In this document: in pieces, positions 5,796 through 26,552 of the stretch
Numbering within the stretch: position 1 is the first letter of the stretch
Layout of the letters: every line of letters starts with the position of its first letter
Origin: an uncultured virus (IMG/VR IMGVR_UViG_3300005747_000147)
Lineage: Duplodnaviria > Heunggongvirae > Uroviricota > Caudoviricetes
Virus record (IMG/VR): IMGVR_UViG_3300005747_000147
Strand: one strand, 5' to 3'
DNA length: 26,552 nucleotides
The notes under the pieces: model-generated
Database searches by the model: none
Told to the model about the DNA's origin: nothing
Seen by the model: the letters and a program-made list of their open reading frames with translations, nothing else
Translations under genes and position numbers: made by a program

Positions 5796-7151
5796 CTATT
5801 CCACTCCACCAATCTGTTCCATCGAATCCATCAAGGACATTTTACTATTGCCTTGAAGTTTAGCAATATCATCTAAATATATCCCTTCTTTAAGCCAATC
5901 AAAACCTACATGGTCTTTGTGATTTTCCCACTTCATAAGTTTGAATATTTCATCACAGCGGCCTTTATACCAGTCTTGTTTCTTATATGATTTTTTCATT
6001 CTTATTAACTCAAGGAGTAACTCTGCATTACCTTTCTTTAATCTAAAATGAGGCAAACATTTTGTTAATAAATCTGTAACATGGTCTTGCGAATAAAAAT
6101 TAAGTCTTTGAACAGGCCGTGTATCTTGCGGTGATTTTTGATTTAAATGTAATTTACCAAACCCAATTGATTTGTGCATTTCTTCCATAAATGCACGACC
6201 CCTATCTCCGGTAGCAATTAAACCGACTCTTGGGTTATGGTTTCTATCCATTGTAATATATCCATCGGAGTCAATAAATGCAGCAGTATAAGCCCAAATG
6301 TTCTTTTTGATTTCATTTGGCATTTTATAATATCCACCATTAACAACAGCGACATCTAATTTTTTAACCATTTTAGAAATCATATTAGAAGTAGTGTTCT
6401 TATGTAATACAGAAGGCATTTTATCATGGAGTTGTTTTGCTCCAATTCCGGGCTGTTTTCTTATTTCACTCTCTATGAAAGAAAGTACTCTTTCTTTCTT
6501 TGATTTAACAAGAGACTGGTCGGAAATGTTTTTAATTTCTGCTCTAAAATCTTTCTTTGCTAAACGGCAAGTCTTTTCGAGAGAAGAGTAATCTTTACCA
6601 TAAACCATATCTGCTTTCTTTAAGTCATGTTCCCAAAACTTACACAAAGCATCTACTACTTTTCTTCTTGATTTAACATCTCCCATTTTATTTAGTTTCA
6701 TCAAATCCTTTTCGTTAAATCTCATTTTGAGTAATGGTTCTTTATATGGACTTAACCAGTAAATAGAATCAATACACTTTGAGATATGGTCGGAGTAGCC
6801 ATCAATAACAGTATCAATTGCTTTAGCCATTCTTACTCTATCTTCTCCTTTTAGTTTTCTTCTTGCTTTACGCATCTTTCTTACTAAATCTGGAATATTT
6901 TCTCCATCAACAACATACTCATTAGGAAAAGAAGAAAGTTGTTTTCTTGCTTCACTAGCATTAATGTTTAGATTTTTAGATAGAGTATTAACTGCTTCAT
7001 AATCCGACATAACATAATCAGTAATGCCTTTATTTAGTTCAATGCCGACATCGCTAAGGGCTTGAACAACAGGTTTCTTTTCTTCCTGTAACTCTTCTAA
7101 TTCTTCAATTTCATCTTTTGATTCAATTAAATCTTGTTCTGTAACCATCAT
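5796..7151 (-). CDS. Protein with a long helical N-terminal region, a putative HTH and a C-terminal LAGLIDADG endonuclease-like domain
   Basis: YTAAFIDSDGYI (about 6255-6290) followed by typical LAGLIDADG elements (IGFGKLH; LLTKCLPHFRLKKGNAELLLE). GAGGTG RBS favours ATG 7151 or 7148. Confidence 0.8.
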   Translation of the reverse strand: MMVTEQDLIESKDEIEELEELQEEKKPVVQALSDVGIELNKGITDYVMSDYEAVNTLSKNLNINASEARKQLSSFPNEYVVDGENIPDLVRKMRKARRKLKGEDRVRMAKAIDTVIDGYSDHISKCIDSIYWLSPYKEPLLKMRFNEKDLMKLNKMGDVKSRRKVVDALCKFWEHDLKKADMVYGKDYSSLEKTCRLAKKDFRAEIKNISDQSLVKSKKERVLSFIESEIRKQPGIGAKQLHDKMPSVLHKNTTSNMISKMVKKLDVAVVNGGYYKMPNEIKKNIWAYTAAFIDSDGYITMDRNHNPRVGLIATGDRGRAFMEEMHKSIGFGKLHLNQKSPQDTRPVQRLNFYSQDHVTDLLTKCLPHFRLKKGNAELLLELIRMKKSYKKQDWYKGRCDEIFKLMKWENHKDHVGFDWLKEGIYLDDIAKLQGNSKMSLMDSMEQIGGVE

Positions 7152-7158
7152 AACCACC

Positions 7159-14469: not shown

Positions 14470-16443
14470 CTATTCACTTTCCTGTTTTTTTTCCTTAAAT
14501 ATACGAGCATCTTTTAATAATTTAAAAGTTTCTCCTGAGAAAATGCCTGAATAAGATTCTTTATTTTTAATTAAGTAGTTTAAATGTAGTTTCAGTTCTT
14601 TCTTAAATAGAGTATTGACCTTTTTAAGCCCTATTAAGAGTTTTTTCGACAAGTCGCTTACTGCCTGTTCCAAGGTTGGGTCTGTAAGTGATAAGGCTTC
14701 TCCCTGCTCTTCTAAAATAGAGTCAATTTTTTCAACCTCACTATCTAAATTAGACTGGGCCACTTTAACTACTAGATAATAAGCCATAATAAAACAATCA
14801 ATAATATCATATTGTCTAGAGAGTCTACTGTAATATCTATCTAGATTACCGGAATCGAAAACCAAATCAGAAAGGGAGTTTTTTGTCAATATTGCCCTTT
14901 CAATTGCAAATTTAATAGAATTTGGTTTAATTTCTGCTTTTTCTGCCGAACCTAAGTCTTCTGGTTGTAATTCTTCTGGATTTTCTTTAATAAACTGCTT
15001 AAAGTTTCGTTCTATGCGCCTAATTGTATTTATTCCTTTTTCATCAACGGCATGGTAAGCATCTCCAACTTTAGAAAGGTCTTTTAAATCCTTTGATTCT
15101 GCAATTTCTTCGTAGTCGAGATAAATGTCCATCATTTTTTCAGATATTCTCCTGTTATTCAAATATCTTTCGTAATCTCTATCCAATGCTTCTTTAGCCC
15201 CTTCTTTATCTACATCAAAGTCTTTCCTTCTTTGAGAATACGCCACCGTAAATTGTTTTTTACCCATAGCAGGTGTTACTTGGACTCCTTCAGTAGCATT
15301 CTTAAAAATAGAATCATTGTTTGGTGAAATTAGAATCCCTTTTACGAATCTAATAGATGCGATTTTCTTTCCACCCGCAGGAAAGTGTATGACTCTTGAA
15401 ATTCTTTGGTTATTTAAGGTTCTCATATACAAATCTTTACTACCTTTGTTATTTACATTCCCTGCAAGCATTAAAACATTAAAATATTCTTCGATTTGCT
15501 TACCTGTTAATGACCCAATCACATCAACATTTTGTGAAGAGGCAGTTTCCATTTCATCTAATTTTAATCTAGCAGTAAATGGTTCTTTACCAAGTAATAA
15601 TGTTGGCAAAAATGGAGGAATACGGCTACTTATAGTTTCATCATCAGAAATATTACCTATTTTTTCTGCTAATTGTATAAATTCGCTACTTTCGGTCTTG
15701 CTTGAGCCACTTGGAGCATATTTTTCACTATCACTACTAGGAAAAACCTTTCTCCAAGTCTCGAAACTTCTGCCGGATATGTTTTTTTCTCCTTTTTCCC
15801 AGCCTTCTATCATTTCTTTACCGGAAGGTTCTGCTAAAGAAAGTTCCGCCAAGCCAAAATTATAAATTGGTCTTGCATTATCTAAAAACTCATCAACAGT
15901 AGGGGCATTTCCTTCTGGAATATTATTAACATATAACCTATAAAGCGGTTTTCTTTTTTCTTTAGGTATATCTCTAATAAGGTTATACATATATGTGTTG
16001 TTTTTAAACCTATTTGTTAAGTATTTAAATAATTTATCTAAGTTGGACTTAACATCCTTATTAGAAAAAATATTTTTTAGAGTAGAATCTAATGTTGAAA
16101 CAGAAGAAGAATATATTTTAGATATATGTTCCCTAATTTTAACAAAGTTATTAAAAATAGTATTGTTAATTTCTTCTCTACCTTTACCTTCATTATTTTC
16201 TCTATCTTTTTTGAGTTGAGTTACCCAATCATCATACAATTTCCTATATTTGTTTGATTTTTTGAATGCTCTTTTTAATGACTGATAGGAATTAATATCG
16301 CTAAACTCTTGAACCAATTCCATGACTGGTTCAATGTTTTTACTCCTGCCCTTTCTACCAGTAGTTAATGCTATTTGAGCATCAGTAGAAGCATCTGAAA
16401 CTAAAACTAATTTAGTCAAGTCAGAAATCGGGGGAAAACTCAT
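14470..16443 (-). CDS. Large hypothetical protein (657 aa)
   Basis: Long ORF, ATGA-coupled; no motif recognised. Confidence 0.8.
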   Translation of the reverse strand: MSFPPISDLTKLVLVSDASTDAQIALTTGRKGRSKNIEPVMELVQEFSDINSYQSLKRAFKKSNKYRKLYDDWVTQLKKDRENNEGKGREEINNTIFNNFVKIREHISKIYSSSVSTLDSTLKNIFSNKDVKSNLDKLFKYLTNRFKNNTYMYNLIRDIPKEKRKPLYRLYVNNIPEGNAPTVDEFLDNARPIYNFGLAELSLAEPSGKEMIEGWEKGEKNISGRSFETWRKVFPSSDSEKYAPSGSSKTESSEFIQLAEKIGNISDDETISSRIPPFLPTLLLGKEPFTARLKLDEMETASSQNVDVIGSLTGKQIEEYFNVLMLAGNVNNKGSKDLYMRTLNNQRISRVIHFPAGGKKIASIRFVKGILISPNNDSIFKNATEGVQVTPAMGKKQFTVAYSQRRKDFDVDKEGAKEALDRDYERYLNNRRISEKMMDIYLDYEEIAESKDLKDLSKVGDAYHAVDEKGINTIRRIERNFKQFIKENPEELQPEDLGSAEKAEIKPNSIKFAIERAILTKNSLSDLVFDSGNLDRYYSRLSRQYDIIDCFIMAYYLVVKVAQSNLDSEVEKIDSILEEQGEALSLTDPTLEQAVSDLSKKLLIGLKKVNTLFKKELKLHLNYLIKNKESYSGIFSGETFKLLKDARIFKEKKQESE

Positions 16444-16905
16444 TGTAATCTTTCCTTAATATAGTTTCTAATTTCTTGCATCTTGTCATTAGGTAATTTA
16501 AGGTTATGTTTGAAAGGCCAATAAAAATTTGACAATACTTTCCAAGCAGGTGCAAAATAATAGTCAAAATCTTCCATATCCATCACCCGATTTTTTGCCT
16601 TTACAAAATCAACTACTTTCTCTCTTTGTTTTTTCCATTTATCTTCATTACTAATTTGCATGTCTGGTCTTCTATCTTTAACGGCATCTTCGGGATTATT
16701 ATTTAACCATTCTTCAAGTATATTAAATATTTTTAGGCTATTGGGTTTAAATTTTTCCCATCTAAGAGTTTCAACCCTTTCCAATTCCTCTTGGTTAAGT
16801 CTTTCTCCTTCTTCTACCACTTTAGGGGCAAATCTCATTGTATCTCTAATAGCATCTTCTGTTGATATTTTTAATATACTTTTCCAACTCATTGTAATCT
16901 CTCCT
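16437..16905. repeat. 20-bp direct repeat AACTCATTGTAATCTyTCCT at 16437-16456 and 16886-16905
   Basis: 19/20 identical; both upstream genes end ERLQ-stop overlapping ATG AGT. Confidence 0.85.
16440..16892 (-). CDS. W-tagged hypothetical protein (MSWKSILK), flanked by a 20-bp direct repeat
   Basis: ATGA overlaps at both ends. Confidence 0.8.
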   Translation of the reverse strand: MSWKSILKISTEDAIRDTMRFAPKVVEEGERLNQEELERVETLRWEKFKPNSLKIFNILEEWLNNNPEDAVKDRRPDMQISNEDKWKKQREKVVDFVKAKNRVMDMEDFDYYFAPAWKVLSNFYWPFKHNLKLPNDKMQEIRNYIKERLQ

Positions 16906-17545
16906 GCATTTTCTTTTTAATATCAAGCCAAATCTCAGGATTGTTCTGTGCTAACACTTCTTGAACAACCTGCATTTGTGCGACAATAATTGTATCTTGT
17001 CTCTTGTGAACAAGTTTGCCTTTGAACTCAAGTAGATACTTTAATGACTCTCGAACTTCTTTTGCGAGTTTAGTAAGACTATCAATCTCTCTTGGTTCTA
17101 AATCTGTATTAAGGAACAAGTCATTCAATTTATCATCTAAGCGTTGAACATTCGCACTCAGCAAATCAATCTCATTAACTTCCTTTTTCGCTATGATAGC
17201 GGCTGCGGATTGCTGCACCAAAGGTGCTAAGTGGTGCTTCATGTGTCGTTGCACCTGTGTTTTTGTGATGTCTAAGGCTTGAGAAATACCCTCACTTGTT
17301 ATATTACCATTAGAAAGGGCTTCCTCGTAGTGTTTCCGCATAGGGTCAATACATAACTTGCATTTGGGGTTACTGCTGTTTGTATATTCACCCATGTGAT
17401 TTCTTTGATGTTGGGCCGCAGTACCACTTCTCCAATCATTTCTTGAATCTAAATCATCGCAACTTGTCATACCTTGTTCAATTGCGGCTTCCATACTTTC
17501 TCTATCACCATGCTGACAAAAGGCACATCTCTTTCTTGTTATCAT
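16889..17545 (-). CDS. Putative terminase small subunit with two tandem Zn-finger/HTH units and a coiled coil
   Basis: CAFC...HQRNH and CKLC...HMKHH units, the second enclosing a clear HTH-like segment (TSEGISQALDITKTQVQRH); helical C-terminus. GGTGA RBS favours ATG 17545. Confidence 0.55.
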   Translation of the reverse strand: MITRKRCAFCQHGDRESMEAAIEQGMTSCDDLDSRNDWRSGTAAQHQRNHMGEYTNSSNPKCKLCIDPMRKHYEEALSNGNITSEGISQALDITKTQVQRHMKHHLAPLVQQSAAAIIAKKEVNEIDLLSANVQRLDDKLNDLFLNTDLEPREIDSLTKLAKEVRESLKYLLEFKGKLVHKRQDTIIVAQMQVVQEVLAQNNPEIWLDIKKKMQERLQ

Positions 17546-17853
17546 TCTTTCACCCACATCGTTGTTTTTAAATCACTAGTGTTTCCGCTTAGTTCTTTTG
17601 TAGTATATCCGTAGTTTCTTAGTAATTTAGAATACGCTCTTAAACTTTCTTGCTTACCTTTTAGTCTATTAAGCCCTGCTTTTTCTTCTCTAGTTCCTAA
17701 TTCATTAACTACTTCAGTATAAGTTGATATTAGTTTTTCATCCAAATCTTTAGTGTTGATTCCTTTACCGTCTAATTCTTCTACAATTCTTCTAATTGTT
17801 TCTTTAACTAATTGAAAATTAAATTTCTTTCTTTTTAAGATACTGAACCAAAC
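17542..17853 (-). CDS. W-tagged protein (VWFSILKRKKFNFQLVKE..., about 103 aa) with an anomalous start
   Basis: The track ORF (17542..17745) extends upstream without a stop to WFSILK. The only nearby ATG (17855) is out of frame. Confidence 0.65.
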   Translation of the reverse strand, partial: VWFSILKRKKFNFQLVKETIRRIVEELDGKGINTKDLDEKLISTYTEVVNELGTREEKAGLNRLKGKQESLRAYSKLLRNYGYTTKELSGNTSDLKTTMWVKE

Positions 17854-17854
17854 A

Positions 17855-18970
17855 TCAATCCCTCCAAAGTTGTTCCATCCAAGATTTCTTTACTGGTTCG
17901 GGAACTTTAGTTTTACCCCTGATATCTAAGTAATTACCATTCTTAAGTTTATAAGTTTCTTTACCAATCACCTTCATAATTAAGGAAACCATAGCGGCCT
18001 TTCCAAATGGCTGTAATTGAAATGTTTCTATGGGACTAGCCAAATTAGGCAACTTACCCACATATTGAACAATCAACTGTGGTTTTGCAGACCTAGAACC
18101 AAAAGACTTTGTTCCGACAGCAAACTGCATACCCTGTAATATAGCAGCCATTTGTTGCAATTTAGGTTTACCTCCAGAAAATAAATCACTTCTCTTTAAC
18201 AAAGAAAAAACTTGTTTTCTTACAGAAGGTATAAGAGCCAAAGAACCCGCACTTCTTTGCACCTTGAGTTGGATATTAGGAATAGGTTTTTTTCGTATTT
18301 CTTGTATCGCTTCTGATATTATATCATATAGGCCTACTTTCACCAAGTCGCCCTTCCCATAAATAGCCTGTGCTAATGGGGGATTAGCAGTATTAGGAGT
18401 CTTACTCCACCAACCTTTCTTTTCAGCAAGACCGTATTTATCTTCAAAGTAATTATCTCGATAATGACCGTAAATTGTTTGTTTTTTATCATCTAATATA
18501 TCTATTTTATTTTTAGCACGACTACCTTTTCTTGGTTTCCCTTTACCTACTTTCCATCTTGTCGGTCTAGTAAAAATAGTATTTCTAGGATTAAGAGTGG
18601 GGCTTTTGGTAATACCATCAAGTTTTTCTTTCAATTCCAAAAAGTCTTCTAAGTCATCCACATCAAATACGCTTTTATTTGCTATTAATTCATAAATATC
18701 ATCTAAGGTTTCAAATATACCATCGCTACCAGTATTCTTAGAATTATCTCTAAGGTACTTTCTTACATGTTGTTGCAATTGTAAGTACAATGTTTTGGGG
18801 TAAGTTTGTCTACCAACTTTGGCGTAAGGACTTCCTGTACTTGCTATATCTTCGGAACTATGCCCATTACAAATTTTTTTCCAATCCAAAAACTTTTTCT
18901 TAAAATCATAAGAAGGGGCTTGTATTTTATTACCGTTAATATCAACTGTTGATTTCTTCGTCTTCGTCAT
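17855..18970 (-). CDS. Basic hypothetical protein (about 371 aa, MTKTKKS...)
   Basis: GGAGGTGA RBS precedes ATG 18970 (or 18976); the longer track start overlaps another gene. Confidence 0.8.
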   Translation of the reverse strand: MTKTKKSTVDINGNKIQAPSYDFKKKFLDWKKICNGHSSEDIASTGSPYAKVGRQTYPKTLYLQLQQHVRKYLRDNSKNTGSDGIFETLDDIYELIANKSVFDVDDLEDFLELKEKLDGITKSPTLNPRNTIFTRPTRWKVGKGKPRKGSRAKNKIDILDDKKQTIYGHYRDNYFEDKYGLAEKKGWWSKTPNTANPPLAQAIYGKGDLVKVGLYDIISEAIQEIRKKPIPNIQLKVQRSAGSLALIPSVRKQVFSLLKRSDLFSGGKPKLQQMAAILQGMQFAVGTKSFGSRSAKPQLIVQYVGKLPNLASPIETFQLQPFGKAAMVSLIMKVIGKETYKLKNGNYLDIRGKTKVPEPVKKSWMEQLWRD

Positions 18971-20755: not shown

Positions 20756-21520
20756 TTACTTCCTTTTGCCTTCAAACATCTTATCTTTGTTTTTGGGTTC
20801 AATCATCTTAATTGACTTAGGAACAGAAGCACCACGCATATTACAGCGTCTAAGAATAACTTCTCCTTTAACATTACACTTAGTAAAATCAACGCCTCTT
20901 AAGTCGCAATCTTCAAATGTAACATTTCCAAGAGTAGCATTCTTAAAATCTGCTCTACTAAAGTTACACAGTTTAATTACACCGGCAGGGTCTTGCTTTC
21001 GATAAAAAGCAAAAAGAGCGTTCTTAAAACTACAACGCTTAAATGATATTTTCTTGAGTCGAATAGGAGTGGTTTTCTTTCCTGTCTTTCTTGTAAACTT
21101 ACCTTCGCCACTTGGTTTCGGTTCGGGTTTGGATAAATCCAATTCATACTTACCTTTCTTCTTTTGTCCGGTTTGAGCAATTCCTTCAAACTTAGAACGA
21201 CCAGTGCGACCTGTTCTATTACTTTCTTTTGCTTCCTTTCGGCTGACTCTTTCTTCTACCAAGCGACCTCTTTCATCTCGCTTAGGTGGATATTTCATTT
21301 CAGTATATTTAACAGACTTTCTTCGGTCTATCAGTTTACCATTGAATTTTTCACCATCAAAGGATTTACCATCCATAATCAAGTATTGTCCGGCAGGTAG
21401 TGTACTACTGAACTTTTCTTTTCTATCAACGAATCCCTCAACATGGCCTTCGTCAGTAACCTTTCTTTTCTTGGCTTCTATTTTATCCCACTTTCGCTTT
21501 AGAATACTTTGCCAACTCAT
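20756..21520 (-). CDS. W-tagged basic protein with C-terminal pentapeptide repeats
   Basis: Starts MSWQSILK; CNFSR ADFKN ATLGN VTFED CDLRG VDFTK; also CSFKN and CNMRG. Confidence 0.8.
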   Translation of the reverse strand: MSWQSILKRKWDKIEAKKRKVTDEGHVEGFVDRKEKFSSTLPAGQYLIMDGKSFDGEKFNGKLIDRRKSVKYTEMKYPPKRDERGRLVEERVSRKEAKESNRTGRTGRSKFEGIAQTGQKKKGKYELDLSKPEPKPSGEGKFTRKTGKKTTPIRLKKISFKRCSFKNALFAFYRKQDPAGVIKLCNFSRADFKNATLGNVTFEDCDLRGVDFTKCNVKGEVILRRCNMRGASVPKSIKMIEPKNKDKMFEGKRK

Positions 21521-23294: not shown

Positions 23295-23516
23295 TTAGAA
23301 TAGTTTTGTTTGTTTAGTTTTATTAGGATGCATTAGTGTTATAATATCTTCTTTTAATAGTTTTAGTTTTAATGCTATTTGCTGTAATTGCTTCTTATTA
23401 ACGCTATTAGTCTGTATATTACGCTTTGATGTAGATTGCCTTATATCTATTAGTATAGGAGTAATGATTTCAATGATGCGGTTTAATTCGTTTAATACCT
23501 CATTATCGTCAGTCAT
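23295..23516 (-). CDS. Small coiled-coil protein ending KQTKLF
   Basis: GGGGAG RBS 4 nt before the ATG; isolated gene in the AT-rich region. Confidence 0.6.
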   Translation of the reverse strand: MTDDNEVLNELNRIIEIITPILIDIRQSTSKRNIQTNSVNKKQLQQIALKLKLLKEDIITLMHPNKTKQTKLF

Positions 23517-23691
23517 ATGACTCCCCTGCTAATGCCTATCCGTATTGGGTATTAAGCGTATCGTTTTTAGGGGCAATAAGTTGAACTATGCGGCGTTTAT
23601 ATTAATAATAACATGTTTAATAGAGTTATATTCATTAAAATAGCCTTATAATATGTTATTTTAATAATAAATCAATAAATAAAAAATTTAG

Positions 23692-23710
23692 ACAAAGCCA
23701 TATGGTTGTA
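23692..23710 (-). promoter_or_regulatory. Leftward-oriented degenerate copy of the CCATATGG palindrome
   Basis: Minus strand reads TACAACCATATGGCTTTGT; no TATAC at the 25-bp offset. Confidence 0.55.
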
Positions 23711-23913
23711 TAACTTGAGGTAATTGCTGATAATGGTAGTCTATATAGACATATTTAGAAAGTATGTTATAACTAAATATAAATAGCAATAGACTAAATA
23801 TAAGCCAAATCTATACCAACGAAGGCCATAAAGCGCAATACATTCTATGGATAATAATGAAATCAAATGCCAATGACTACCATATCATAGACCTATATAG
23901 AACCTAATAGACA

Positions 23914-23956
23914 CAACCATATGGTTGCTTTGCTTCCTCAGACTTTATACCTATTG
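23914..23956 (+). promoter_or_regulatory. Cassette 1 promoter: CAACCATATGGTTG palindrome and TTTATACCTATTG TATA-like box
   Basis: Perfect 14-bp palindrome at 23914-23927; TATAC at 23946. Confidence 0.75.
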
Positions 23957-23984
23957 ACAACATAATAATACAGGAGAGAGAAAT

Positions 23985-24194
23985 ATGATAGAAGCACTAC
24001 AACGACACCTAATTGGAGCAATTACCCAACTGCATGTAATGAAAGCAGTCCAAGACGAACAATACGAGATAGCCGAGGAATACCCAGTTTGGGAAGAAGA
24101 AGGAACGCTTGATTTTCTGATAATGGCTTGGGATTTCGTACAATTTGAAGAATGGCGAGATTGGGCTAACCAATTCTACGGAGGCGGTCTTTGA
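23985..24194 (+). CDS. Small acidic Trp-rich hypothetical protein
   Basis: AGGAGAG RBS; first gene after promoter 1. Confidence 0.8.
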   Translation: MIEALQRHLIGAITQLHVMKAVQDEQYEIAEEYPVWEEEGTLDFLIMAWDFVQFEEWRDWANQFYGGGL

Positions 24195-24400
24195 TGTATT
24201 TGAGGAGTAGAATGCAATTACATGATGTGCCTTTGTCTTTGTTTGAAATGTGGACTTCATTACCGAATACAACAATTCACATTTCCAAGAATTACATATG
24301 GGCTACATGGTCGGACAACGGACAATTACTCGACCTTTGGCTAATTGATGAAGATGTTGCCGAATATAAGGAAAAATACCAATTGGAGGAAGAAGAATGA
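24194..24400 (+). CDS. Small hypothetical protein (68 aa)
   Basis: GGAGG RBS and TGATG coupling at 24194. Confidence 0.75.
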   Translation: MYLRSRMQLHDVPLSLFEMWTSLPNTTIHISKNYIWATWSDNGQLLDLWLIDEDVAEYKEKYQLEEEE

Positions 24401-24885
24401 AAACAGAACAAATGAAGAAAGAAGTGAGAATATATCCATATGAACATATTATGATGGATGACGACTTGGGCGGTGTAGTTATTTTTACTAATCCCGAACA
24501 TCACCCCGACGACCATTATCGAGGAAGAGGAATGTATCATAATTGGAGTATGGAGTCTTGGTCGCATGAAAAGTTTGCTATGCAAATGCTATTCGACTTA
24601 ATCCAAGTCACAGATATTCCTCAACAGATTTATGTCACTGAAATACAGAAAATGGTGAAATGGCAAAAAGTAGAGGCATTGTATGAAACATATGGTAAAC
24701 GAGGTAATATCACCGTCGAAAAATGTCCTTATTGTGATTCAAAGAACATTGAGTATGATGGTGACATGGAGACTGATGGTTGTTCTGCTGATTGGGCTAC
24801 TTGGGCCTATTGGAGTATCAATTGCAACGATTGTGATTTCGGCATCAATGGAAAATATGTGGAGTCATCCGGTGGTAATTGGTAA
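24397..24885 (+). CDS. Hypothetical protein with C-terminal Zn ribbon
   Basis: ATGA coupling; CPYC...CNDC. Confidence 0.8.
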   Translation: MKTEQMKKEVRIYPYEHIMMDDDLGGVVIFTNPEHHPDDHYRGRGMYHNWSMESWSHEKFAMQMLFDLIQVTDIPQQIYVTEIQKMVKWQKVEALYETYGKRGNITVEKCPYCDSKNIEYDGDMETDGCSADWATWAYWSINCNDCDFGINGKYVESSGGNW

Positions 24886-24912
24886 TCAATACCTGCATCA
24901 ATTCGTGAATTA

Positions 24913-24955
24913 GGGGAGAATCGGCCGTAATTGGTCGGTTCTCTCCATTTTTTTT
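24913..24955 (+). terminator. Hairpin + poly-T terminator
   Basis: GGGGAGAATCGGCC / GGTCGGTTCTCTCC 14-bp stem (3 G-U), then A and T8. Confidence 0.85.
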
Positions 24956-24977
24956 GTTTTCGGGGTTTGCTACGCTA

Positions 24978-25025
24978 CAAAGCACAACCATATGGTGTGC
25001 TTTGACGGCCTGATTATATACTATT
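24978..25025 (+). promoter_or_regulatory. Cassette 2 promoter: CAAAGCAC-A-ACCATATGGT-GTGCTTTG palindrome and TTATATACTATT
   Basis: Extended palindrome at 24978-25004; TATAC at 25017. Confidence 0.75.
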
Positions 25026-25039
25026 CGCACCAATAGTAT

Positions 25040-25642
25040 TGCTTCGTGGCGAAGTGGCTTAATTATTCGGTTGTAACTGAATAGGAAAGGTGAAAAATAT
25101 GGACAAACAAAAATATGATATGAAAGCAAACGAGATTTTAGTATGGTTGAATGTGAATGATGCAGGTGCTTTAGGCCCAGTTATCGAAGCGACATTGAAG
25201 GCCGGATTGACAGCAGACAGCGATGAAGACCGAGATAAGTTTTGGTCGTCGGTTCGGTCATTGTGCGGTACTCTCCCAAACTCCCCGATTCGCAGAGGTA
25301 TTCAATCCAGCCTCACAGCGGAACAGAGTGCAAATGTGGATTCTGTAATCAATCGTATCGAGAGTGCATTTGCTTCAATTGGTGAAGCAGACCTCATTCT
25401 TGATGTAATGCACCCACGACAGCGTGGCGATTCAATCGGTCATTATGGCTCAATTGAAGATTGGGCTTCAAACATGGCTCAATCTGTCGAGCGACAGTTG
25501 AAACTTGCAATTAAGGAAAACCGTTGGTCAGGCGAATTGACTGACGGACTAACAAACATGGCCCTCAAAGAGCCAAAGGCAACAGATACGGAGGATTCCT
25601 CCGAGGAATGATTGAGTAATTGAGACACTTCGCCATGTCGCA
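25040..25642 (+). repeat. 33-nt imperfect inverted repeat (25040-25072 / 25610-25642) enclosing one gene
   Basis: As plus-strand RNA: 24 Watson-Crick pairs, 6 G-U pairs, 3 mismatches, no gaps. Confidence 0.85.
25099..25611 (+). CDS. Hypothetical acidic helical protein (170 aa, MDKQKYDM...), sole gene of cassette 2
   Basis: AGGTGA RBS favours ATG 25099; visibly more GC-rich than the structural genes. Confidence 0.85.
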   Translation: MDKQKYDMKANEILVWLNVNDAGALGPVIEATLKAGLTADSDEDRDKFWSSVRSLCGTLPNSPIRRGIQSSLTAEQSANVDSVINRIESAFASIGEADLILDVMHPRQRGDSIGHYGSIEDWASNMAQSVERQLKLAIKENRWSGELTDGLTNMALKEPKATDTEDSSEE

Positions 25643-25682
25643 CCCCTTCCTGCCCAAATCGGGCGGGGAGGGGCTTTTTTTT
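25643..25682 (+). terminator. Hairpin + poly-T terminator
   Basis: CCCCTTCCTGCCC / GGGCGGGGAGGGG 13-bp stem, then C and T8. Confidence 0.85.
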
Positions 25683-25712
25683 GGATTTCAAAAAAGGTTG
25701 GTCTAAAGACCA

Positions 25713-25762
25713 CAAAGCACAACCATATGGTTGCTTTGTTTCCCTGCATAATATACCTATTG
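25713..25762 (+). promoter_or_regulatory. Cassette 3 promoter: CAAAGCACAACCATATGGTTGCTTTG and AATATACCTATTG
   Basis: Perfect 14-bp core at 25720-25733; TATAC at 25752. Confidence 0.75.
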
Positions 25763-25790
25763 CATACTAAGTATCATGCGAAAGGAGATT

Positions 25791-25901
25791 ATGTGCGAAT
25801 GCAACGAAACAACATGGTATGACGATAATGGCGGAACGGTGGCATTTGTTGATGCCATGCGTTATGTTTTGAGTATCTGTAAATGTGAGGTGAAAGAATG
25901 A
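25791..25901 (+). CDS. 36-aa Cys microprotein MCECNETTWYDDNGGTVAFVDAMRYVLSICKCEVKE
   Basis: Not in the track. AGGAGA RBS; an in-frame ATG at 25776 could be a leaderless start; ATGA-coupled to the next gene. Confidence 0.65.
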   Translation: MCECNETTWYDDNGGTVAFVDAMRYVLSICKCEVKE

Positions 25902-26026
25902 GTGTGCATAACGGAAACTGCGAAGTATTTGTTGATTGTGCTAAGTGTAATGCTTTCATCAGTAATTGGACTTATCACAACAAAGCGTATTTTTGTATAA
26001 ATTGTATTGATGAGGTGACTGAATGA
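25898..26026 (+). CDS. 42-aa Zn-finger microprotein (CAKC...CINC)
   Basis: Not in the track. GAGGTGA RBS; ATGA overlaps at both ends. Confidence 0.75.
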   Translation: MSVHNGNCEVFVDCAKCNAFISNWTYHNKAYFCINCIDEVTE

Positions 26027-26238
26027 AATGTAAAAAACCAATGAAACACCGCCCTGCTATGGAGGGCGTGAATAACTGCAAGGAATGTGAACGGGAAAAA
26101 TCGGAAGAACACATGCAATTATTGACTGCTTTTGGTTGGAGTCGAGAGAAATTAGAAAACTTGGCCGATACAGAAAAGAAAGAGAGAGATAGATGCGGAT
26201 ATTTGTATTTTCCTTGGTTGTATCAATGGAGTGAATGA
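26023..26238 (+). CDS. Small Cys-containing hypothetical protein
   Basis: GAGGTGA RBS; CKEC. Confidence 0.7.
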   Translation: MKCKKPMKHRPAMEGVNNCKECEREKSEEHMQLLTAFGWSREKLENLADTEKKERDRCGYLYFPWLYQWSE

Positions 26239-26479
26239 TATGGATGATATGAAAACAGTAATTGAGCATTTAGATGAAAGGTATTCAAATTGGGAGGTGG
26301 TGATTATGGCACTTGTCGAGGATATACTACCGGATGAGGTTTATGAGCAAATCACTGAGATGTTGGCCCAAATGGTATGTGATGAAGAACACCCGCTTCA
26401 ATTAACTCATTTGAGGGAATTGTGCGATTCAAAGAACATGAACGATGTTATCATGTGCATGATTCAAGGATTCAGTTAA
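26231..26479 (+). CDS. Small acidic hypothetical protein
   Basis: Last gene before the terminator; start uncertain (GTG 26231 or ATG 26240/26249). Confidence 0.75.
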   Translation: MNDMDDMKTVIEHLDERYSNWEVVIMALVEDILPDEVYEQITEMLAQMVCDEEHPLQLTHLRELCDSKNMNDVIMCMIQGFS

Positions 26480-26506
26480 TCTGCAATTGTTCAAAGTGGT
26501 GGATTT

Positions 26507-26548
26507 GAGGGGAATGGGGCGAAATGCCCCGTTCCTCTCTTTTTTTTT
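26507..26548 (+). terminator. Hairpin + poly-T terminator
   Basis: GAGGGGAATGGGGC / GCCCCGTTCCTCTC 14-bp stem, then T9. Confidence 0.85.
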
Positions 26549-26552
26549 GATT

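Follow-up and report, generated by a model that had tools for sequence, protein, structure and literature searches.

Segments that flank a functional RNA on its 5′ and 3′ sides pair with each other in archaeal rRNA processing stems (bulge-helix-bulge) and in the panhandles of segmented RNA viruses. Within mRNAs, one of the closest described cases is the short monocistronic hbs mRNA of Bacillus subtilis, in which the 5′ untranslated region (UTR) pairs with the 3′ UTR over 14 bp that overlap an RNase Y site; this pairing tunes the access of nucleases, and mRNA stability is linked to translation (Braun, Durand and Condon 2017, PMC5737220). According to the account in PMC9841398, the full-length hok mRNA is closed by a 5′–3′ stem, after the nascent 5′ element has first paired just downstream in a metastable hairpin; the closed form masks the Shine-Dalgarno sequence of mok and is re-opened by slow 3′ trimming, the antisense RNA Sok acts on the mRNA, which encodes a small toxin of about 50 aa. 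For icaR of Staphylococcus aureus, a UCCCC anti-Shine-Dalgarno motif is described that covers the ribosome-binding site and brings in RNase III (PMC7821165, PMC3868564), and the pairing of RNAIII/hld is given as 7 bp (PMC7821165). For haloarchaeal mRNAs, a joint requirement for both UTRs was shown functionally, in an account that defines no base-paired helix (Brenneis and Soppa 2009, PMC2636863).

The locus described here lies in a DNA stretch of 26,552 nucleotides (hereafter the window) from an uncultured virus (IMG/VR record IMGVR_UViG_3300005747_000147) and comprises one gene, for a 170-aa protein, enclosed by a helix between its two UTRs. As in hbs, pairing joins the two UTRs of a short monocistronic mRNA; unlike there, the helix measures 32–37 bp and is known from sequence comparison, begins at or near the predicted first base, includes the stop codon and abuts an end hairpin, and the virus is probably archaeal. 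An analogy to hok-type mRNAs, drawn in a first-pass annotation of the sequence, holds for the 5′–3′ stem, which full-length folds retain for 49 of 50 loci, and for the metastable local hairpin, predicted here as HP1. It does not hold for Shine-Dalgarno sequestration, since this sequence is free in the closed form, nor for the small-toxin criterion, the product being a predicted soluble, helical, acidic protein of 170 aa; an antisense RNA comparable to Sok is not evident at the locus. In contrast to icaR, the 3′ UTR does not pair to the Shine-Dalgarno sequence, the 5′ arm ending upstream of 25083–25093, and the helix is far longer than that of RNAIII/hld. The archaeal setting is shared with the haloarchaeal mRNAs, but here a helix is defined, from aligned sequences. 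Differing from the archaeal rRNA stems, none of 42 helices contains a bulge-helix-bulge and the product is the mRNA of a DNA virus, to which the replication role of the segmented RNA virus panhandles does not apply. The hok, icaR and bulge-helix-bulge models each miss a defining feature, and no match to any of 4227 Rfam families was found in the window at E ≤ 1.

Geometry of the helix in the window

The transcription unit comprises the following features (window coordinates, 5′ to 3′):

24979..25003, no strand assigned: palindromic element with the core ACCATATGGT (repeat families D1 and D2; inverted pairs I5 and I14–I18)
25013..25020, plus strand: TATA-box-like ATTATATA, last base 19 nt ahead of the first paired base (TATAC = 25017–25021)
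25040..25074, plus strand: 5′ arm of the end-to-end helix (pairing, fold, shuffles, pair probabilities, alignment)
25041..25055, plus strand: hairpin HP1 inside the 5′ arm, GCTTCG-TGG-CGAAGT (fold of the isolated leader, 11/11 clade representatives)
25063..25084, plus strand: hairpin HP2, abutting the Shine-Dalgarno sequence (isolated leader in 7/11 representatives)
25083..25093, plus strand: Shine-Dalgarno-like AGGAAAGGTGA, unpaired in the closed fold
25099..25611, plus strand: ORF of 170 aa plus stop codon, predicted all-helical with an acidic tail, no known family
25608..25642, plus strand: 3′ arm of the end-to-end helix, holding the stop codon TGA (25609–25611) and occupying the entire 3′ UTR up to the hairpin
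25643..25682, plus strand: 13-bp, GC-rich end hairpin with T8 tract, the predicted transcript end signal, beginning right after the last paired base

Positions 25040–25072 pair with 25610–25642 without gaps on the plus strand (24 Watson-Crick, 6 G-U, 3 mismatches); in the identical register, the minus strand has 24 Watson-Crick pairs, no G-U and 9 mismatches. The full-length transcript (25036–25682) was folded with programs that take neither ribosomes nor helicases into account, and the minimum-energy and centroid structures both paired 25040–25074 with 25608–25642, giving 32 bp arranged as 3 + 12 + 17; the z-score of the whole fold was −8.2, based on 20 shuffles only. The Shine-Dalgarno sequence is unpaired in both structures, the closed fold leaves the start codon unpaired too, and the loop contains no more than the ribosome-binding site and the ORF. 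Folding of the whole transcript, which the first-pass annotation had proposed as a check, kept the helix, and its reading of the locus agreed with ours on the arm positions and pair counts, on a 3′ arm reaching from the stop codon to the terminator stem, on a ribosome-binding site outside the helix, on the distance of 23 nt between TATAC (counted from its start) and the arm, and on the local hairpin at 25041–25055, which forms in the isolated leader.

RNAduplex gave −43.6 kcal/mol for the 5′ UTR (25031–25098) with the 3′ UTR (25606–25645). None of 2000 dinucleotide shuffles of both arms was as stable (mean −17.9, s.d. 3.5, best −35.6), and the best alternative partner among 5,272 other 40-nt windows of the plus strand reached −33.8 kcal/mol, so that chance pairing is not the explanation. 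When upstream and downstream regions were compared for all 91 ORFs of at least 50 aa in the window, the duplex of the 170-aa gene was the strongest (−45.1; runner-up −29.1, median −14.0). Comparable pairing is missing from the units on either side, TU1 (−8.8) and TU3 (−11.3), whose values fall inside their own shuffle ranges, for which reason a general trait of the early units of this virus was rejected.

Conservation and co-evolution of the arms

A duplex between 5′ UTR and 3′ UTR was present in all 42 distinct complete homologous loci, drawn from 70 rows examined, with energies of −31.9 to −56.7 kcal/mol; per locus, 0 of 200 shuffles matched it, the mutual relatedness of the loci meaning that shuffle controls overstate independence. 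By full-length minimum-energy folds and pair probabilities, at least 15 such pairs were kept in 49 of 50 loci. The remaining one, L080, loses the helix in its minimum-energy fold, and in L080 and L081 20 of 200 shuffles equalled the observed duplex. The helix is also present in 11 more distant family loci, each with its own arms, and a tandem paralogue (L065, 732–1220) has arms of its own as well (duplex −46.1). The median length is 33 paired rungs (range 24–42, 51 loci).

Arm sequences are unrelated between clades: cognate arms pair with a mean of −45.7 kcal/mol, arms mixed across clades with −16.6 to −27.3. In an unfitted MAFFT alignment of 26 transcripts, the 30 pairs of the helix were 88.1% paired versus 79.7% after shuffling (0/500), with changes on both sides in 12 of the 30 (shuffles 7/500) and 69 both-side-changed cells versus 26.4 expected (0/500); registers slid along this alignment were 31–45% paired. 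RNAalifold recovered the outer helix unaided, and a structure-anchored count gave 15 of 33 paired columns as compensatory, with 95.7% of cells paired. The plus-strand duplex is the more stable of the two strands in 37/42 loci, and the strand-neutral cores hold 41 G-U against 6 A-C, which points to plus-strand RNA as the selected form; both strands are equally complementary in L020–L027. Since dozens of related viruses preserve the pairing by matching mutations, the comparison strongly supports the end-to-end helix as a real, selected plus-strand RNA structure around a one-gene transcript. That the helix is selected as single-stranded nucleic acid and encloses a single-gene transcript had been proposed in the first-pass annotation, together with covariation of homologous arms as a check; conservation, compensatory changes and strand asymmetry now bear this out.

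The position of the helix relative to the gene is likewise conserved. In 42/42 loci the 3′ arm starts 1–3 nt ahead of the first base of the stop codon, which the helix thus includes, and 12–27 nt separate the end of the 5′ arm from the ATG (23 nt in the window). Among clade A loci, the end hairpin begins 0–2 nt past the arm and is followed by T7–9 in 25 of 26; overall, a hairpin directly after the arm was found in 33/51 loci and is a clade-A trait.

Two local hairpins compete with the helix. HP1 and the long helix are mutually exclusive. HP2 and the inner end of the helix draw on one and the same 5′ strand, and conservation extends to both pairings; HP2 itself has 6 pairs, with 156/156 cells paired and both-side changes in 2 pairs. 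An extension of HP2 reaches the Shine-Dalgarno sequence in 3/11 representatives, and in most open folds of isolated leaders this sequence and the start codon are unpaired. HP1 with the U-rich run, terminator-like in a scan, was rejected as a leader attenuator, the T run being interrupted and not conserved. An upstream hairpin (25021–25040) was, by eye, not conserved across loci.

Virus, transcript and protein

The major capsid protein matched archaeal tailed viruses only (11/11 records). An HK97-type, halovirus-like capsid module is present with portal, terminase and protease; an 840-aa ligase-domain protein is encoded beside protease and capsid, terminase and portal flank an HNH-like ORF, and PolB is present. 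An ATP-dependent DNA ligase and a nuclease gene within the structural module and a family-B DNA polymerase are among the traits given for magroviruses (PMC5434244). MCM, RFC, clamp, primase and RadA were not found among the Pfam-scanned ORFs of at least 120 aa in an incomplete viral record. The uncultured marine tailed virus looks magrovirus-like, and its host is thus probably archaeal, a Marine Group II archaeon.

This assignment affects how the promoter is read. The first-pass annotation had presumed a bacterial promoter, which the capsid and the ligase/PolB gene content speak against; in a probably archaeal virus, TATAC more likely belongs to a TATA box, and an arm near the transcript start becomes more plausible. 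Among 47 distinct upstream regions that match the TATA-like sequence at 5/7 or more, the gap to the helix is 16–22 nt in 39 (median 19), and with a TATA box about 19 nt upstream, transcription would begin on the first paired base. With a bacterial host, transcription would start about 11 nt ahead of the helix and leave a free 5′ tail, counting against protection of the end. The palindromic element with the core ACCATATGGT, located upstream of the promoter, precedes all three plus-strand units and also recurs in related loci; it probably serves as a regulator site. A minus-strand sigma-70 scan over the locus gave 11 sites versus 11.9 expected, archaeal promoters being outside this model.

RNA data were used as assembled contigs, in which ends, strand and level are not readable and rare forms are dropped. 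Contigs from runs X1, X2 and X11 cover parts of the unit, the X1 contig ending at 25676; a contig of a variant extends 97 nt upstream of 25039, and another reaches 25718, beyond the T tract. These overruns of the predicted ends may reflect read-through or DNA. Circularisation, which had been suggested for the transcript, found no support: a bulge-helix-bulge occurs in 0/42 helices, and no joint within 25040–25682 was seen among the assembled contigs of four RNA runs, where rare forms are dropped.

The 170-aa protein is predicted to be soluble and helical with an acidic C-terminal tail; the structure model from 83 sequences was good (pLDDT 93.1), that from 5 sequences, made earlier, poor (55.6). 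It belongs to no known family by the searches made: PHROG and Pfam gave no family for the window protein (two stray sub-threshold Pfam matches only across 83 family members), the PDB sequence search no relative, and Foldseek no match in the PDB at E ≤ 0.001. Matches in BFVD were two unnamed viral proteins only, and in the VIA-align wide comparison residues 2–66 resembled generic three-helix bundles only (Z ≤ 8.6, below what is stated as noise for helical bundles). No usable match came from the ESM Atlas; blastn and tblastn of unit and protein against 50,697 phage records gave no match, a scan of genome contigs with alignment A3 no relative, and the P0022 search no locus; alignment A4 was too diverse for locus scans. 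No conserved ORF overlaps the gene.

Possible functions of the helix

Among the functions that the first-pass annotation had offered, nuclease protection is in our judgment the best inference, and it is argued from geometry and analogy. With moderate confidence, we propose that the helix hides the 5′ end and both UTRs from nucleases, opening being coupled to translation. The 170-aa gene would form a self-contained transcription unit whose mRNA closes on itself, with the GC hairpin and U tract directly beyond; the duplex would bury the 5′ end and both UTRs and could stack on the 3′ hairpin, although stacking would not be universal, given that a hairpin right after the arm is a clade-A feature (33/51 loci). 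5′-to-3′ exonucleases and endonucleases requiring single strands would find no entry, and the message would thereby be stabilised. In the nascent RNA, HP1 and HP2 would form first and be displaced by the 3′ arm once it is transcribed. As the stop codon lies within the helix, each terminating ribosome would have to re-open the inner turns, upon which HP2 could re-form, so that the state of the clamp would follow translation. A precedent for protection via 5′/3′ pairing is the hbs mRNA (PMC5737220), and aRNase J is described as a 5′–3′ exonuclease conserved in Euryarchaeota (PMC7144898).

Control of translation is a distinctly less probable account. Here, HP1 and HP2 versus the helix would act as a timed, hok-like switch of access to the ribosome-binding site, or a closed loop would re-use ribosomes, the helix setting the terminating ribosome beside its own Shine-Dalgarno sequence. 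The constant inclusion of the stop codon, the short distance from the 5′ arm to the ATG, the 5′ strand shared by HP2 and the inner helix, HP1 in 11/11 isolated leaders and the contact of the HP2 extension with the Shine-Dalgarno sequence in some representatives are all consistent with it, as are the joint need for 5′ and 3′ UTRs in haloarchaeal translational regulation (PMC2636863) and termination-reinitiation, reported for archaea and bacteria (PMC6728339). However, no on/off masking is predicted, since Shine-Dalgarno sequence and start codon are free in the closed and in most open folds; a precedent for ribosome re-use across a helix was not found, and the equal conservation of the outer half of the helix is left unexplained. 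In an elaborated closed-loop version, independent of cap and poly(A), the ribosome would melt the inner helix, HP2 would form and the ribosome would be handed back to its own start site, while the outer helix ties and protects the ends. The stop codon would be paired to the leader at a distance of about 10 nt to the Shine-Dalgarno sequence, amounting in effect to circular translation in an archaeal virus, an idea that we regard as improbable.

That the helix is a processing site is also doubtful. A dsRNA- or motif-specific endonuclease would cut it, with end trimming, triggered decay or ligation into a circle as the outcome. The geometry recalls rRNA processing stems, in which 5′ and 3′ flanks pair around the product. 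The median of 33 rungs suffices for RNase III-type enzymes (the 32 bp in the window exceed the substrate length of about 20 bp), and an irregularity is conserved 3–4 bp from the outer end, as a 2×2 loop in the motif GCUUC / G-Y-N-GC in 37/51 loci. Against cleavage stand the missing bulge-helix-bulge motif (two 3-nt bulges on opposite strands, 4 bp apart; 0/42 helices), the absence of an RNase III domain (PF00636) from the 66-kb viral record, 72% complete, and the lack of a joint across the unit in the contigs of the four RNA runs; to our knowledge, RNase III is moreover absent from most archaea.

Similarly little credence is given to the helix with its near-terminal loop as a protein-binding site, possibly for the encoded 170-aa protein, which would then feed back on its own message. 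The structure tracks the gene family, each paralogue and clade having its own arms, neighbouring genes lack the helix, and sequence conservation marks the outer motif, the remainder of the helix being variable; yet the motif pair is missing in 14/51 loci, and the protein has an acidic C-terminal tail and no recognisable RNA-binding fold or family. A role of the arms as DNA, whether as paired sites for protein binding or as the terminal inverted repeats that bound a mobile cassette, is very improbable: they are the longest DNA-level inverted repeat within 23400–26552 (29 nt, 79%) and equally complementary on both strands in L020–L027, but the strands are not equivalent overall (see above), both arms are transcribed, lying downstream of the promoter and ahead of the end signal, the stop codon fixes the inner end, and no transposase or recombinase is enclosed.

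The end-to-end element is a candidate for a new cis-regulatory RNA family. Known 5′/3′-UTR pairings are mostly short and described in one organism each, whereas here a helix of 32–37 bp encloses a whole gene and is supported by dozens of related loci with their own arm sequences, from a large family of viruses that are abundant in the ocean. The fixed geometry of the helix, from the inferred transcript start over the stop codon to the end hairpin, sets it apart from these pairings. If the host is archaeal, the helix would give concrete, testable access to the question of how, lacking cap and poly(A), archaeal mRNAs are protected or re-used, and the UTR pair might be usable as a ready-made stabiliser for expression in archaea.

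Pairing of leader and trailer in the 170-aa gene transcript

The right end of the window is formed by three tandem plus-strand transcription units, each carrying a palindrome and a TATA-like box and ending in a GC hairpin plus T run. The unit with the helix is the middle one and holds a single ORF. Its elements are:

25040–25074, plus strand: 5′ arm of the helix
25041–25055, plus strand: local hairpin HP1
25063–25084, plus strand: local hairpin HP2
25083–25093, plus strand: Shine–Dalgarno-like sequence
25099–25611, plus strand: ORF of the 170-aa protein
25608–25642, plus strand: 3′ arm of the helix

The first-pass annotation held that two 33-nt stretches flanking the gene pair without gaps, and this was borne out: 24 Watson–Crick pairs, 6 G–U pairs and 3 mismatches, as against 24, 0 and 9 when the minus strand was read in the same register. 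Using RNAduplex, leader (5′ UTR, 25031–25098) and trailer (3′ UTR, 25606–25645) gave −43.6 kcal/mol, a value reached by 0/2000 dinucleotide shuffles (mean −17.9, sd 3.5, best −35.6); the best rival partner among 5,272 other plus-strand 40-nt windows gave −33.8. For each of the 91 window ORFs of ≥50 aa, the upstream and downstream regions were likewise paired, and the duplex was by far the strongest for the 170-aa gene (−45.1; runner-up −29.1, median −14.0). When 25036–25682 was folded, the long helix appeared in the minimum-energy structure and in the centroid alike, as three blocks of 3, 12 and 17 bp (32 bp altogether) separated by one 2×2 loop and one single mismatch. The pairing was absent from both flanking units (−8.8 and −11.3 kcal/mol, matched by 363/500 and 282/500 shuffles), so the helix is a trait of the 170-aa gene and not of early transcripts generally.

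The 5′ arm is self-complementary. HP1, already proposed from the sequence, was predicted in the isolated leader of 11/11 clade representatives and HP2 in 7/11; HP2 was paired in 100% of 156 alignment cells, and at two of its pairs both sides had changed. The 5′ strand of HP2 is also the inner-end sequence of the long helix and is kept paired there too. As this strand is common to both folds, nascent RNA can form HP1 and HP2, and finished RNA the long helix, whose inner part a ribosome at the stop codon would have to re-open. The ribosome-binding site was correctly placed outside the helix: the closed fold and most of the open ones leave the Shine–Dalgarno-like sequence unpaired. No simple masking switch is predicted by the folds. 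A perfect 6-bp hairpin (CGGAGG-ATT-CCTCCG, 25589–25603) lies in the last ORF codons, just 5′ of the stop codon and 3′ arm, and is kept in part of the window's clade (columns 586–600 of A2, an alignment of transcripts of the window's group).

Conservation and co-evolution of the arms

Relatives of the 170-aa protein were found in IMG/VR (5) and at 68 loci of marine metagenome contigs (42–100% identity). The window, these 68 loci and one IMG/VR locus were examined (n = 70); without incomplete flanks and exact duplicates, 42 distinct complete loci remained. Complementary flanks were found in 42/42 (−31.9 to −56.7 kcal/mol), with 0/200 shuffles reaching the native duplex in each. In 42/42 the 3′ arm starts 1–3 nt 5′ of the stop codon, and the 5′ arm ends 12–27 nt before the ATG. 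Whole-transcript folds contained at least 15 leader–trailer pairs, both in the minimum-energy structure and at pair probability >0.5, in 49/50 loci, L080 being the sole exception. By profile search the family comprised 143 cluster representatives, and complementary flanks recurred in 11 loci of two far more distant subfamilies (~27–35% identity); shuffles were as good in 0/200 for 8 of these, in 1/200 for one, and in 20/200 for L080 and L081.

Arm sequences fell into at least four unrelated groups. Cognate arms averaged −45.7 kcal/mol, whereas a leader combined with the trailer of another group gave −16.6 to −27.3, near shuffle level. The arms of the tandem paralogue at locus L065 are different again (−46.1). 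In some viruses two or more paralogues lie near one another (L065, 732–1220 and 1501–2031; the IMG/VR contig behind L079 and L082), each with its own promoter and a distinct arm pair.

Covariation was assessed by pair count on A2, a plain MAFFT alignment of 26 whole transcripts on which only a simple anti-diagonal register was imposed. Across 30 pairs, 88.1% of cells were paired, against 79.7% after partner shuffling (0/500); sliding the register by 1–3 columns left 31–45%. Changes on both sides were seen at 12 of the 30 pairs (7/500 shuffles as high) and in 69 cells (26.4 expected; 0/500), and the covariation score was 0.287 against 0.161 shuffled (0/500). RNAalifold found the outer helix unaided, with four pairs changed on both sides. 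A structure-anchored count, which is biased towards structure, gave 33 paired columns, of which 15 were compensatory, 11 invariant and 7 altered on a single side, and 95.7% paired cells against 86.9% shuffled. Since the loci are mutually related, the shuffle controls overstate independence; the unrelated arms across clades and paralogues are the stronger argument.

The plus-strand duplex was more stable than the minus-strand duplex in 37/42 loci (means −45.7 and −37.9), and in gapless cores, defined without regard to wobble pairs, non-Watson–Crick positions comprised 41 G–U, 6 A–C and 27 others. The end-to-end element is thus regarded as a real, selected RNA structure, and a conserved plus-strand helix as nearly certain. 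On these comparative grounds, the predicted helix was shown to tie the leader to stop codon and trailer throughout the 170-aa gene family.

Transcript boundaries, regulatory signals and virus

Of 50 distinct upstream regions, 47 contained a TATA-like heptamer (matching TTATATA at ≥5/7 positions); the helix begins a median of 19 nt after the last base of this box (16–22 nt in 39/47). Archaeal promoters start transcription some 22–27 nt from the TATA-box centre, which would place the start at ~25040 and the very first bases inside the helix; a bacterial −10 reading would instead give a start near 25029 and an 11-nt tail. Since the outermost 3–4 pairs vary between clades yet remain paired, transcription must include them. 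In 25/26 loci of the window's clade, the last paired base is followed after 0–2 nt by a strong hairpin (−20 to −29 kcal/mol) and then T7–9, so that the 5′ end would abut the hairpin base. Other clades have ~100 more nt before the end signal.

In the more distant clades the 3′ arm and end hairpin are ~100–150 nt apart (L056, 2056–2210; likewise L051, L060, L062 and L064), with conserved stretches including GTTAAAATTACAAT...CTGAAC; this spacer had no Rfam match and may represent a small RNA or a structured domain of the 3′ region. Weak manA RNA motif matches (L056, 3164–3414, minus strand, 26.2 bits; L060, 1–194, minus strand, 21.4 bits) lie under the gathering score of 55.2 and may be chance.

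Marine metatranscriptome runs contained parts of the stretch as assembled contigs, which indicate presence in RNA libraries and not ends, strand or level: 25039–25676 in run X1 (735 nt, stopping at the T tract, with 97 nt further upstream in a variant), 25098–25718 in X2 and 25100–25343 in X11 (0 differences). No joint inside the unit was found in these contigs.

Given the same TATA geometry, the flanking units (23944–23990, 25749–25795) would have leaders of only ~15 nt, so a leader of 59 nt, as in the middle unit, is unusual for this virus. Copies of the palindrome, core ACCATATGGT(TG), are located at:

23689–23709
23908–23927
24979–25003
25714–25733

It lies 15–30 nt 5′ of the TATA-like box in each plus-strand unit, with one extra copy in the divergent region, and is found ahead of the homologous genes in almost every related locus; it probably serves as the operator for an early-gene regulator of viral or host origin.

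The window corresponds to 39313–65864 of a 66,179-bp virus record (estimated 72% complete). Portal, large terminase and, between them, an HNH-like ORF lie in the window; elsewhere the record encodes a family-B DNA polymerase piece, an ERCC4/helix-hairpin-helix nuclease, tail tube, SU10-type capsid protein and prohead protease. Two genes are listed:

Window 5796–7157, minus strand: HNH-like ORF, 453 aa, between terminase and portal
L092 (rest of the virus record) 16394–18916, minus strand: 840-aa protein with ATP-dependent DNA ligase domain, adjoining prohead protease and capsid genes

Each is an unusual intrusion into the structural module, a pattern described for magroviruses. In the phage collection, the capsid protein matched archaeal tailed viruses only (11/11 records, from Haloarcula viruses or viruses assigned to methanogen-related lineages). 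Magroviruses, as described in PMC5434244, are 65–100 kb, have PolB and carry a ligase and a nuclease embedded in a halovirus-like structural module; they are presumed viruses of Marine Group II archaea, a host assignment itself indirect. The gene set here is that of the hallmarks listed there. Further observations were a 2,280-aa ORF with no Pfam match (L091, 11854–18696, minus strand) and a pentapeptide-repeat protein (Pfam E = 3e-11; window 20756–21520, minus strand) among minus-strand genes.

Putative function and relation to known pairings

The helix would clamp the message, holding the 5′ end and both untranslated regions double-stranded, with the ribosome-binding site and ORF alone accessible, and would deny entry to 5′–3′ exonucleases and single-strand endonucleases. 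We infer this protective role as, on balance, the probable one. Precedents are the hbs mRNA, in which a 14-bp 5′/3′ pairing limits RNase Y cleavage (PMC5737220), and aRNase J (PMC7144898), a 5′–3′ exonuclease conserved in Euryarchaeota.

A possible but unlikely alternative is a translational switch or a loop for ribosome re-use. The helix as a processing site is improbable; a bulge-helix-bulge processing stem was ruled out, the motif being present in 0/42 helices. Equally improbable is a protein-binding or autoregulatory site. The 170-aa protein had no PHROG, Pfam or PDB sequence match; its structure was predicted confidently (pLDDT 93.1, 83-sequence alignment) to consist of helices only, three of them bundled at the N terminus, with an acidic tail, and structural searches with this model gave no informative match. 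Both arms sit between promoter and end signal, with the inner end tied to the stop codon. This placement agrees with a helix in the plus-strand RNA and disagrees with terminal inverted repeats or paired DNA sites; a DNA-level repeat is hardly credible.

By analogy, the element resembles the few known same-molecule 5′/3′-UTR pairings. The likeness to hok mRNAs drawn in the first-pass annotation holds for the closing stem and metastable 5′ hairpin; Shine–Dalgarno masking and the small toxin, as described in PMC9841398, have no counterpart here, and for the antisense RNA a sigma-70 scan gave minus-strand sites at background level (11 found, 11.9 expected). An icaR-like element was ruled out, as there is no anti-Shine–Dalgarno pairing of the kind described in PMC7821165. 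No Rfam family matched the element, and searches of the open-access full-text literature turned up no phage or archaeal virus described with such a helix. Closest in logic is hbs (PMC5737220); the helix here is more than twice as long and its ends are fixed. The end-to-end helix is a new form of a rare but known 5′/3′-UTR pairing, with a presumptive function.
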